Origin: Escherichia coli
GTDB lineage: Bacteria > Pseudomonadota > Gammaproteobacteria > Enterobacterales > Enterobacteriaceae
NCBI RefSeq assembly: GCF_044324785.1
Contig: NZ_CP172127.1
DNA: 64,000 nucleotides
Direction: 5' to 3' (one strand)
The first letter of the stretch is position 1, and the number at the start of each line of letters is the position of its first letter. Position numbers: made by a program. Shown one piece after another: positions 49,801 through 55,800 of this stretch.

Positions 49801-52800
49801 GAACGCTTATGTAATGGATGCTGCGGCATCGCTGATTACCTACGGCATTATGCTCGGCGAAAAACCTGCCGTGCTGTCGGCTATCGTTAAGTATCACTGT
49901 ACCCACCGCGGGCAGCAGTCGATTATTGATGCGATGGATATTACCGGCGGTAAAGGCATTATGCTCGGGCAAAGCAACTTCCTGGCGCGTGCTTACCAGG
50001 GCGCACCGATTGCCATCACCGTTGAAGGGGCTAACATTCTGACCCGCAGCATGATGATCTTCGGACAAGGAGCGATTCGTTGCCATCCGTACGTGCTGGA
50101 AGAGATGGAAGCGGCGAAGAACAATGACGTCAACGCGTTCGATAAACTCCTGTTTAAACATATCGGTCACGTCGGTAGCAACAAAGTTCGCAGCTTCTGG
50201 CTGGGCCTGACGCGCGGTTTAACCAGCAGCACGCCAACCGGCGATGCCACTAAACGCTACTATCAACACCTGAACCGCCTGAGCGCCAACCTCGCCCTGC
50301 TTTCTGATGTCTCGATGGCGGTGCTGGGCGGCAGTCTGAAACGTCGCGAGCGTATCTCGGCACGTCTGGGGGATATTTTAAGCCAGCTTTACCTCGCCTC
50401 TGCCGTTCTGAAGCGTTATGACGACGAAGGCCGTAATGAAGCCGACCTGCCGCTGGTGCACTGGGGCGTACAGGATGCGCTGTATCAGGCAGAACAGGCG
50501 ATGGACGATTTACTGCAAAACTTCCCGAACCGCGTGGTTGCCGGGCTGCTGAATGTGGTGATCTTCCCGACCGGACGTCATTATCTGGCACCTTCTGACA
50601 AGCTGGATCATAAGGTGGCGAAGATTTTACAAGTGCCGAACGCCACCCGTTCCCGCATTGGTCGCGGTCAGTACCTGACGCCGAGTGAGCATAACCCGGT
50701 TGGCTTGCTGGAAGAGGCGCTGGTGGATGTGATTGCCGCCGACCCAATTCATCAGCGGATCTGTAAAGAGCTGGGTAAAAACCTGCCGTTTACCCGTCTG
50801 GATGAACTGGCGCATAACGCGCTGGCGAAGGGGCTGATTGATAAAGATGAAGCCGCTATTCTGGTGAAAGCGGAAGAAAGCCGTCTGCGCAGTATTAACG
50901 TTGATGACTTTGATCCGGAAGAGCTGGCGACGAAGCCGGTAAAGTTGCCGGAGAAAGTGCGAAAAGTTGAAGCCGCGTAATTGAATAACGGAGCCGAAAG
51001 GCTCCGTTTCTTTATCCGCTAATTATTTAAAATTAAAGCCATCCGGATGGTTTTCCAGGCTGCCGGTCAACGCCGCGAACAGCACCGTTTTACCATCAAT
51101 CGAAAGCGCATCGTTCACATTCAGCCAGGTAAGTTTCTCTTGCGACGTTTTCTCATCAATGGTCGAGAACAGCCCCGTCATCTGATTAGATTTCTCGGAC
51201 CACATCACAGCGATACGTTGCGAGCCACAGTCATGCGGTTTGCACGCGCTCATCACCTGATACGTCTCATCTCCCAACGTTACGGTTTGTGCGGGAGTAT
51301 ACGTACCGCCTTTCATCACCCAGGCAGGCAGCTTATGCCCTTGCACCATCTGATTAAACGCAGCTTTGGTGGTTTCGCCCTTTGCAAGGCTGCTAATGGT
51401 TAAATCATCCTGCGCCATTGCACTGGTGGCGATGACCAGAGCGGCGACTGTCGTTATTGCCTTAAACATCATTCCTCCCGAGCTTATCCTGCCCATGTTA
51501 TTAACCTCCTAAAGCCTGGCGATAACACGATAATTTGCAAATCAGATATTTCCAATATCAGCATTTGTTATCAATTTATTCTGCGCTAAGGCAACTGCCT
51601 GATAAGGTGTTAAAGTTATAAAACCCTTCGCATAAAGGAGTTGTACACCGTGCCTGGCTTGAAGATTACGCTTTTGCAACAACCACTGGTGTGGATGGAT
51701 GGTCCTGCCAACCTGCGCCATTTTGATCGTCAACTGGAAGGTATTACCGGGCGCGATGTGATCGTTCTACCGGAGATGTTTACCAGCGGCTTTGCCATGG
51801 AAGCGGCAGCTTCGTCGCTAGCACAAGATGACGTAGTGAGCTGGATGACAGCCAAAGCGCAGCAGTGCAATGCGCTGATTGCAGGCAGTGTTGCATTACA
51901 AACGGAGTCTGGTTCGGTTAACCGCTTTTTGCTGGTTGAGCCGGGCGGCACGGTACATTTTTATGATAAGCGTCATCTGTTCCGCATGGCAGATGAGCAT
52001 CTGCATTATAAAGCGGGCAATGCGCGAGTGATTGTGGAATGGCGCGGCTGGCGTATTTTGCCGCTGGTGTGCTACGACTTACGTTTTCCTGTGTGGTCGC
52101 GCAATCTCAACGATTATGACCTCGCCCTGTACGTCGCCAACTGGCCTGCTCCGCGCTCTCTGCACTGGCAGGCATTGCTGACGGCCCGCGCGATTGAGAA
52201 TCAGGCGTATGTGGCGGGATGCAATCGCGTCGGCAGCGATGGCAACGGCTGCCATTATCGCGGTGACAGCCGGGTGATTAATCCACAAGGCGAGATTATC
52301 GCTACTGCCGACGCGCATCAGGCAACGCGCATTGATGCGGAGCTGTCGATGATGGCATTGCGGGAATATAGAGAAAAGTTTCCGGCATGGCAGGATGCGG
52401 ATGAGTTTAGGTTGTGGTGAGTGGGGGTTGTGTTTAGGGCCGGGGAGAGTCGGGGTATGACTACGAAAGCCCGCTCCCCGCAAGGACTGATGCCAGGTAG
52501 TTTCTGTGAGCCTGTTTACCATTCTATGTAAATGCCTTTCTCAGAAGTGACCGTCAAGGCGGTCACCGAATTCGATAATAAAGCCAGGGCAAGATTACGA
52601 AAGCCCGCTCCCTGCAAGGACTGACGCCAGGTAGTTTCTGTCCATGGCTGCTTTTCGCATCTTACGTCTTAACCCTGCCTTGAATACCTTATCATTCGTC
52701 AATATATTAATAGCGATGTGCCGTATCCCTGAAAATAATTCTGCTGCATTTCCTCTTCTTATTTTGCAGTCGTCTTCATTCATTACCACGTCCAGACGCC

Positions 52801-55800
52801 AGTGCAGCTTATTCTCCACGTGCCAGTGGTTTCGGATTGCTGTGGCGAACTTCTCTGCGGTTAAATCAGCAGAACTGATATAATATCTGACCGTCATTTC
52901 TGGCTCTTTCTTTTGTTCTGCTATTATTGACCGAAAGGAGACTGCCACGCATAATTTCTTCAGACCTTTCCATTCAAACATGAAATCAATAAGTTCATCA
53001 AGGACATCGCAAACAATGTGAAGACGGATTTCTTCTCTGCCGTGACTCTTTTCACTAATTGCGTAACTGTCATGCTCTGGATTATTTAATTCTTTCAGCG
53101 GAAATTTTTCCTCGAAGGCTTTATTTAGCCGCCCCTGGTTTCCTTTTACAGCGAATAAATAATCACCGCCCTGTTTTTGTATCTTTCCTGCAATATCTTT
53201 CTGGCAACACATCACATCAGTTGTGATGATTTTTCCTTTAATATCCAGCATGTTAAGGAGTTCAGGGATAGCTGTAATCTCATTGGATTCCTCATCCGTC
53301 CTGATCTGTCCGATGACCAGACTGTGCATTGTTGAGAACGCACTAATGACATGAATCGCTCCCTTGCGGCGACTCTTGTCATAAGAGTGCCGGAGTGTTT
53401 TTCCATCAATTGCAATGACGCCTTTATCATCTGAAGAATGGCAGTCACGCATCCAGTTAATAAAGCACTCGTGAAATTTTGCAGGACTGATACAGGATAC
53501 AACTCTGGCAATGGTATCGTGAACAGGAATACCATTTTAAAAATCACCATATTGCTTCAAAAAATCGAGATGTGTTTCCCCAAAATCCTCTATATCTTCC
53601 CAACCTTCTGCACCCGAAATAACGGCGCAAATAGTCAACAGTAGAATATCCGATAATTTATGTTCCACTTTCCAGGCTTGTCTGTAATCGGGGATAATAG
53701 AAATATGTTCCATCAATTTTTTAAGTTACATTTTGTTCTCCTTAATTATGTAAGGAGTATTTGATCATGTATAAGCAATAAAAAACAGCTTTAGGTAATG
53801 AGGAATATCTCAATTTTTAAACATAAAATGCGAATTACTTAGTACAAAAAAGCAGCGTTACGTGATCTTTCCCTGGTCCCTGTCCCGGATTGTAGTACCG
53901 GTGCCAGTTGTAGTGCAGTTCGGATTCGTCGTCATACTGCTAGCCCGGATGGCGGAGCAGTTGCTCTAGTCACTCAGAATATTGTAATAGTGATAGAGTG
54001 CAGTGCCGGTTTCAATATCCTAACGCTGGTCTTTTGCCTGTATTAACTGATTTAGCTGGTTTGCTACATATTAATGCCTTCAGATTTTCCCTTTCCTTGT
54101 CTGTGATACTGTCGCAAACCCTACTAGCCCATTCTACTTCACTCTTCTCCAGGCATTCTATTTTCTTATTGCTCATTGTTCTAATGTTTGGTGTTGCATC
54201 TCCATTTAATAACATCCATGTTTCATTTTTCTTCATAAAACATCTTCCATTATGTTCAAAGATATTAGGTGTGAATATATTATCAGAATCCCATGTTACG
54301 ACTTGCTCGAGGGCTATATTATCTTGATAGTCCATGCCAGCATTATAATAATCACAAGATATAATTATCATGGAAATAATTATCACTAATATCTTCCCAA
54401 GCATTTCCATTTACTTTACCTCTTGAAATTCAAATGGGAATCCAGTGAAAGGACCTTTAGGCATAATATATCTTTGATATCCATAAAGCTCACCGAGCAC
54501 TTGTAGGCTTATAGGCGCATTTGTATTCATAGAGGGGTTGTTAAACCCGCACGCCTCAAAAATCATGTTCGTTCGGCTAAAACAATTATTTAAAACAGGA
54601 AGAGGCCCGAGGTTAATAGTTTTTAGTTTTTTATTAAGGTCTATTGCCTTATTCATCATACATTGTTCTTCTTCATCTGTTGTATCTATTATCCAAATCC
54701 AGGTATCTCTGCGGGGTTGCATCTTTTTAAAATAATCAGAGACAGAGGCTCCCATCTCATCCCCAGTTCCCGAACTCATTAATCCATATCGATTTGCCGC
54801 CGCAGCATGCCCAAAAGGATTATCAGGAACGGGGCCGTTACCTATTATCATAGTACTAAGCCCTAATGGATCAACGTGTTGCACTGGATTCAGCGGATAT
54901 TGGTACAGATTCCATCCCCCCTTCAGCCCAATCGGGTCCTGGATGATATACCGCCCCTGCAACGGATCGTAGTACCGGTGACGGTTATAATACAGCCCCG
55001 ACTCCTCATCGTGTTGCTGCCCTGGCAGACGGTACGGCTGGTGCAGGTGATGCGGTTTTTCCTCATTCAGCAGGTTTCCCCACTCATCATACTCCCCGCT
55101 CCACGCCGTATTGCCGTCTTCGCTGATGAGCGCCAGCGGCAGGCCCCGGTGGTCGCAGTGGTAAAGATGAACTTTTCGCGCCGGTGTGTATTCCGGCTCC
55201 ACCTGTCTGGCCAGTTGCTCTACCGTCAGCCCGCACTGCGCAAGCCACGCCCGGCTTTCACTGCTCACGCGGTCTGCCCGGATTTCCCCCTCCAGCCTGT
55301 CCAGCATCCTCACAAGTTCTGCCGGGAACACCACACCGTGTCCGTTCTCGCTCCCTTCCTGCTGGAGCTTCTCCGCCAGGCTCCGCCGCTGCGTTTTCTC
55401 CCGCTCGCCGTTGTCTGTTTCGATGCGGATGAGTGGTGTGAAGCTTCCCGGCTCGTATACCGTCTGGATACGTGTGCTGTCGGTCTGCACCGTCGTCAGG
55501 TGGTCGCCGTCCCAGCCGTACCACGTCACCTCCGGTTTACGCGACAGCGACATCCACCCCGTCAGGTCACGTACCCGCCGCCACACCCGTTTACCCGTCC
55601 GGCGGCCCAGCGGGTCGTAGAGGTAGCGGCTCTCCACCTGCGGCTCGCCATGCTGTATCCGCGTGTAGAACACCAGGCGGTGCTGGCTGTCGTAGTGGTA
55701 GTGGTGGGTCCGCTCGTCGTCCGTCCGTATCACACCCGCCGGGATGCGGTCCGTCTTCTCCGTCAGCCTGCCGTATTCATCGTGGCGGTAGACATAGTGC

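Follow-up and report, generated by a model that had tools for sequence, protein, structure and literature searches.

The closest described relatives of the element considered here are the H-repeats of Escherichia coli K-12, namely yhhI (at RhsB), ydcC (RhsE) and ybfD/ybfL (RhsC). These copies lie at the distal end of an Rhs element, as does the one described below, and transposition of an H-repeat has never been observed, even for intact copies (PMC3032704). The stretch analysed, referred to as the window, is 64,000 nucleotides of E. coli DNA (RefSeq assembly GCF_044324785.1, contig NZ_CP172127.1), in which an initial annotation had pointed to an H-repeat transposase with two nonsense codons and a duplicated insertion sequence (IS) terminus, suggestive of a past rearrangement. 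We find that positions 52451-53875 are correctly labelled as three units, an orphaned H-repeat end, a fragment from the end of an IS256-family element, and an ISEc1 pseudogene, and we interpret the region as IS debris on the yafV side of an Rhs toxin cluster linked to a type VI secretion system (T6SS), with the order hcp-vgrG-rhs-immunity-core stub. For this explanation as a whole, including the history proposed below, we estimate a probability of about 0.85. The H-repeat loci used for comparison are the RhsB/yhhI locus of K-12, the RhsC-type locus of strain 200177, another Rhs locus in strain ws5-3 and the yafV locus of strain MMC-J-0078, and population counts refer to 5,426 complete E. coli genomes. 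The features at issue, with the basis for each in brackets, are as follows.

52451-52507, minus strand: X1, repeat copy 1, orphan right end, 57 bp long, of another H-repeat variant (repeat and pattern match)
52508-52584, minus strand: S, terminal 77 bp of an IS1414-related IS256-family element, consisting of its end, the last 13 codons and the stop (homology; translation)
52585-53875, minus strand: full-length H-repeat/ISEc1 element of the ISAs1 family, 1,291 bp (loss of homology at five unrelated loci)
52585-52602, minus strand: right inverted repeat CAGGGCAAGATTACGAAA, inside repeat copy 2 (X2, 52585-52641) (direct reading; flank comparison)
52595-53731, minus strand: transposase pseudogene, 378 codons and natural stop (translation; Pfam)
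53537-53539, minus strand: nonsense codon 65, TAA, inside the N-terminal DDE_Tnp_1_assoc domain (translation; GAA in intact copies)
53726-53728, minus strand: nonsense codon 2, TAA (translation; GAA or GAG in intact copies)
53858-53875, minus strand: left inverted repeat, reverse complement CAGGGAAAGATCACGTAA (ends ...CCCTG in all compared loci)

Homology among the H-repeat copies begins at CAGGG(C/A)AAGATTACG and stops at ...GATCTTTCCCTG in every compared locus, and the element delimited in this way has both the length (about 1.2-1.3 kb) and the imperfect terminal inverted repeats looked for in ISAs1/ISEc1 elements, with CAGGGCAAGATTACG and CAGGGAAAGATCACG agreeing at 13 of the first 15 positions. 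It is 96.3% identical at the nucleotide level (1,292 nt) to yhhI, the reference ISEc1 copy, which places it in that group, and 97.7-98.8% identical to the copies found at the same locus in other strains; the best full-length matches in the whole genome collection reach just 97.6-98.8%. The window element is a member of the H-repeat/ISEc1 group of the ISAs1 family by descent, and is non-autonomous; the original reading as an H-repeat transposase pseudogene is borne out, and the locus comparison places the element at the site of K-12 yafF. The likeness to yhhI extends to the 1,291-bp length, the imperfect terminal repeats, the single DDE-type open reading frame (ORF) and the missing target-site duplications. 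The window copy differs in having two TAA nonsense codons in its transposase, and in that its right end adjoins the IS256-like fragment and the orphan H-repeat end rather than unique DNA. No target-site duplication was found at the window element, its outside flanks ATAATAAAGC and GTCCCTGTCC being unlike, and none at the ws5-3 or yhhI copies either.

The transposase frame, read on the minus strand from 53731 to 52595, is open apart from codons 2 and 65 and contains no frameshifts. When both stops are repaired to Glu the translation matches DDE_Tnp_1_assoc (PF13808, E=7e-34) and DDE_Tnp_1 (PF01609, E=9e-28), the domain pair sought in ISAs1 transposases, while the intact transposase ORF of an autonomous element is missing. 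Translation confirms the two TAA codons first reported, and the accompanying statement that intact copies carry Glu (GAA) at these sites was also right: K-12 yhhI has GAA at codons 2 and 65, and strain 1190, which has an intact transposase at the same locus, reads GAG at the first of these and GAA at the second. Relative to GAA, one G to T substitution accounts for each stop. The transposase is dead through these Glu2 and Glu65 replacements, the second of which truncates the N-terminal domain, and the H-repeat element is now functionless beyond offering homology for further rearrangement.

An alternative is that the stops are sequencing or assembly errors, or that they are recoded by readthrough or reinitiation such that transposase is still made. 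The absence of frameshifts and the otherwise fully open frame would suit this idea, as would an in-frame ATG at codon 7 that could reinitiate after the codon-2 stop and is the start assigned by PGAP to the pseudogene in strain N3. However, both stops recur in N3, which was sequenced independently, and one of them in strain 19KM1831; codon 65 falls within the N-terminal PF13808 domain, and TAA is the most efficient E. coli stop codon. Moreover, promoter/terminator and Rfam scans across 51500-54500 gave no signal above background, and specifically no recoding signal, so that continued production of the transposase appears very improbable. PGAP itself labels the N3 ortholog 'ISAs1 family transposase, internal stop'.

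Each stop is a rare marker of lineage. Exact 61-mers spanning the TAA were found in 5 of the 5,426 genomes for codon 65 and in only one, strain N3, for codon 2; N3 has both stops and 19KM1831 the codon-65 stop only. This distribution, together with the counts of five genomes against one, indicates that the codon-65 stop is the older of the two.

A codon-65 GAA to TAA change is also present in an H-repeat at a different Rhs locus in ws5-3, 23CRST029 and B25FEP (L009/L010/L011 1587-2723), where the element is flanked on one side by an Rhs/immunity pair and on the other by an orphan Rhs fragment with an ankyrin gene. It is 96.1% identical overall to the window copy.

The other component of the initial annotation was a 46-bp terminal segment overlapping the transposase 3' end and duplicated 135 bp away, at 52462..52507 and 52597..52642. 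The repeat is real, with these coordinates and the spacing each off by one: a 45-nt pattern matches at two places only, 52463-52507 and 52597-52641, with 2 mismatches (0 expected, 100 shuffles), and a longer alignment of 60 nt (52448-52507 and 52582-52641) retains 88% identity, the two starts lying 134 nt apart. Copy 2 overlaps the transposase stop codon and the last 14 codons and is the true right end of the 1,291-bp element, with X1 lying outside it.

Because 5,147 genomes contain the repeated unit, with a median of 3 occurrences in each, it might be supposed to be a generic intergenic repeat of the repetitive extragenic palindromic (REP) or bacterial interspersed mosaic element (BIME) type, which had been named from the outset as the observation that would undermine a rearrangement. 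Dispersal to several places in each of thousands of genomes is what such a repeat would show, but each occurrence that we inspected lies within or beside the 3' end of an ISAs1-family transposase gene, the repeat encodes the transposase C-terminus, it has no Rfam or other repeat match, and there is no inverted-repeat structure within the unit. Neither palindromic units nor dispersal independent of an IS having been found, we reject REP/BIME membership, which we consider to have almost no chance of being correct; the repeat is the right terminus of H-repeats.

X1 and copy 2 are nonetheless not the same end. X1 opens with a diverged terminal repeat, CGGGGTATGACTACG, that differs from the true repeat CAGGGCAAGATTACG at 5 of 14 positions, and the IS256-like end truncates it at H-repeat position 57. 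In the remaining 43 bp it differs from copy 2 at two positions, both synonymous in the transposase frame, and it still encodes 14 residues identical to the transposase C-terminus. In K-12 yafF and N3 the single-copy element naturally ends, on its outer side, in a head of the X1 type; in strain 1190 the X1 head differs from the ISEc1 repeat at two positions only.

The 77 bp that separate the two ends have a different origin. IS1414, a member of the IS256 family and a carrier of astA/EAST1, is the closest named relative: S matches the end of IS1414 on plasmid pE1316 at 93.5% identity, in a region that overlaps there with the 3' end of the gene annotated as an IS256-like transposase, and on the minus strand S translates to FIIEFGDRLDGHF followed by a stop, exactly as the IS1414 transposase does at its C-terminus. 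A search of pE1316 for inverted repeats at the IS1414 ends found nothing, its far end there being probably disrupted, and we therefore set the terminus from three independent flanks instead. The unrelated left flanks of IS1414 on pE1316 and of longer remnants in 200177 and MMC-J-0078 converge on one first base, at GAGCCTGT, and this convergence marks the IS256-like terminus. The 22-residue piece from S, too short alone, has no Pfam match, but the longer MMC-J-0078 remnant, at the yafV locus, matches Transposase_mut (PF00872, E=9e-18), and terminus continuity and a Mutator-type PF00872 transposase C-terminus together assign S to the IS256 family. By these comparisons S is foreign to the H-repeat and derives from a relative of IS1414 rather than from IS1414 itself. 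Only 77 bp survive in the window, and internally the longer remnants elsewhere share only ~84% identity with IS1414 and ~95% with unnamed 'IS256 family' copies. We sought a full-length copy of this element, and the best candidates (H139 and H140) are themselves truncated. A hairpin in the spacer, GTGACCG...CGGTCAC, was considered as a terminator and rejected, as it lies in the coding end of the IS256-type transposase.

These findings bear directly on whether the IS duplicated its own terminus locally, by slipped or tandem duplication or by aberrant transposition. Two directly oriented copies of 45-60 nt only 134 nt apart would be the expected outcome, and without a target-site duplication the end has clearly been rearranged. 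Yet the intervening 77 bp are foreign and begin exactly at an IS256-family terminus, a tandem duplication predicts an X-S-X-S order and another pattern is seen, the heads differ at 5 of 14 positions and the remainder at 2 of 43, and the X1-type head is a natural element end in K-12 and N3. We regard local duplication as quite improbable. The foreign spacer, the diverged X1 head and the exclusively synonymous internal differences indicate instead that X1 is the orphan end of a different H-repeat variant, not copied from the present element. The '46-bp duplication' is thus two different H-repeat ends in direct orientation, and the suggestion of a past rearrangement at the IS end survives insofar as the end is rearranged and lacks a target-site duplication, but not insofar as it took the second copy for a duplicate of this element's own terminus.

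Comparison of strains reveals several types of junction between yafV and the IS. The X1-S-X2 arrangement is present in 197 of the 5,426 genomes (≥80% coverage from the yafV stop to the IS end), among them strain 1190 with its intact transposase, and it must therefore predate the window strain; it is unrelated to the nonsense mutations. Most genomes match the first 87 nt only and then run directly into the transposase, which is the K-12 type. N3 likewise has a single copy of the terminal segment. A third junction, in 19KM1831, has an ISEc1-type head directly on the yafV flank, and a fourth, in MMC-J-0078, consists of 14 bp of X1, GGT, 22 bp of an ISEc1 end, a 352-bp IS256-like remnant and then ISEc1. 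At least 250 records match this remnant at ≥99% identity, with 100% identity among the matches listed. K-12 yafF (b4503) shares with the window its locus, orientation, yafV flank and X1-type outer end, but keeps only ~290 bp of the 3' part of the element with a single terminal segment and no IS256-like spacer, and has also lost the Rhs/T6SS cluster that lies on the far side of this remnant.

In the MMC-J-0078 yafV flank (L006 2960-3001) H-repeat heads stand in tandem, as CGGGGTAAGACTACG, GGT and CAGGGCAAGATTACGAAAGCCCG, just before the IS256-like end.

The window IS is a mosaic. A table of variable sites shows single-nucleotide polymorphisms of the strain-1190 type in the right third, from 52584 to ~53018, and of the N3 type in the left part, from 53186 to 53878, and the simplest explanation for the combination of the duplication with the stops is allelic recombination within the element.

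No fewer than two H-repeat ends and one IS256-like element are required to build the structure as a whole, and the most economical sequence of events that we can propose has four steps. An older H-repeat with an X1-type end would have lain beside yafV, a state still present in K-12 yafF and N3; an IS256-like element would then have inserted at H-repeat position 57; an ISEc1 copy would have landed in, or recombined into, the IS256-like element 77 bp from its end; and homologous recombination between two directly oriented H-repeats may have removed the intervening DNA to leave X1-S-ISEc1. The nonsense mutations would be later and independent, first at codon 65 and then at codon 2, and may have entered this haplotype by allelic recombination. 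Such a history accounts both for the missing target-site duplications and for the left flank common to all of the junction types, and the missing duplications fit an end-rearrangement history and the failure to observe H-repeat transposition.

The order of events could also have run the other way, with X1-S-ISEc1 ancestral and the single-copy state derived from it by repeated loss of 134 bp through recombination between the 45-nt direct repeats. N3, which is the closest genome, shares both stops and yet is without exactly these 134 bp, the K-12 copy combines an X1 head with the X2 base at the second diagnostic site, and a one-step deletion between direct repeats is mechanistically easy. The long form, however, is found in only 197 of the 5,426 genomes, the 1190-like/N3-like mosaicism of the window IS means that allelic recombination explains the N3 difference without any deletion, and the N3 end has 3-4 private differences predicted by neither X1 nor X2. 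We consider a derived single copy possible but somewhat doubtful. A simpler version, in which N3 is a window-like parent minus 134 bp, is not supported as the sole route given that the window IS is a mosaic.

Several observations weigh against the four-step history. We found no genome with a complete IS256-like element at H-repeat position 57 accompanied by an 8-9 bp duplication (...GTTTCTGT). Given the mixed character of the single K-12 copy, noted above, the single-copy K-12/N3 state could equally derive from X1-S-X2 through recombination between the 45-bp repeats. The left junction of MMC-J-0078 differs, and so there must have been more than one insertion or rearrangement. Lastly, the TAA at codon 65 is shared by a diverged H-repeat (96.1% identity) of another Rhs locus, and this calls for parallel mutation or else for gene conversion over a short tract between H-repeat copies.

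Fragments of one IS256-like element adjoin H-repeat ends at three or more internal breakpoints, lying 77 bp, 352 bp and ~519 bp from the same terminus (window 52508-52584; L006, from MMC-J-0078, 3001-3352; L004 3001-~3519; L013 3083-3487). The junctions are spread over two loci, yafV and RhsC/ybfD, and include both relative orientations, and the IS256-like terminus itself is found within H-repeat ends at two positions, 57 and ~22. The juxtaposition is recurrent, and it is conceivable, although we think it unlikely, that the H-repeat was recently active with a preference for this IS256-like target or that the IS256-like element targets H-repeat termini.

The finding is real but ordinary, and represents the known biology of insertion sequences that have decayed and become nested at the border of an Rhs/T6SS island, with slight significance beyond annotation. 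At the yafV-Rhs junction, IS ends have piled up in a polymorphic arrangement that could mark strains or lineages, and the 45-nt direct-repeat ends are a plausible substrate for a 134-bp length polymorphism between close relatives.

The surrounding genes set this debris in context. Proceeding through the window, fadE, ivy and yafV (ending at 52420) are followed by the H-repeat feature and then, on the minus strand, by a 132-residue ORF, Rhs, VgrG and Hcp.

51650-52420, plus strand: yafV, 2-oxoglutaramate amidase gene bordering the IS debris (ORF list; ortholog annotation)
53876-53938, minus strand: stub of the conserved Rhs core 3' end, 21 codons (QYDDESELHYNWHRYYNPGQG), abutting the IS left end (flank translation)
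54012-54410, minus strand: 132-residue ORF directly downstream of rhs (ORF list)
54411-58640, minus strand: Rhs core protein gene, 1,409 residues (Pfam RHS_repeat, DUF6531, RHS)
58707-61543, minus strand: T6SS genes upstream of rhs, vgrG at 58707-60815 and hcp at 61025-61543 (Pfam Phage_GPD, Gp5_trimer_C, T6SS_HCP)

The orthologous stretch carries the same annotation in strains 1190, N3 and 19KM1831, of which N3 is the nearest complete genome to the window (99.0% identity across 12.7 kb), and yafV is annotated as a 771-bp gene in 1190, N3 and K-12. Orthologs of the 132-residue ORF are annotated in 1190, N3 and 19KM1831 as a 399-bp gene for a 'hypothetical protein'. The ORF has no Pfam match, and its position alone makes it a probable immunity protein gene.

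The Rhs core ORF is intact (1,409 codons) in the window and in 19KM1831, whereas its annotation in strains 1190 and N3 records a frameshift or an internal stop (L001 8315-12263, L007 9222-13010), a pattern indicating that the toxin gene and the adjacent IS decay independently of each other. At its left end the window IS adjoins the Rhs core stub ...HRYYNPGQG, and the right end of the ws5-3 IS adjoins the complementary part (...DPLGL; L009 ~1450-1586). These complementary parts suggest that the H-repeat is lodged in the conserved YYDPxxGRY region of orphan Rhs core fragments.

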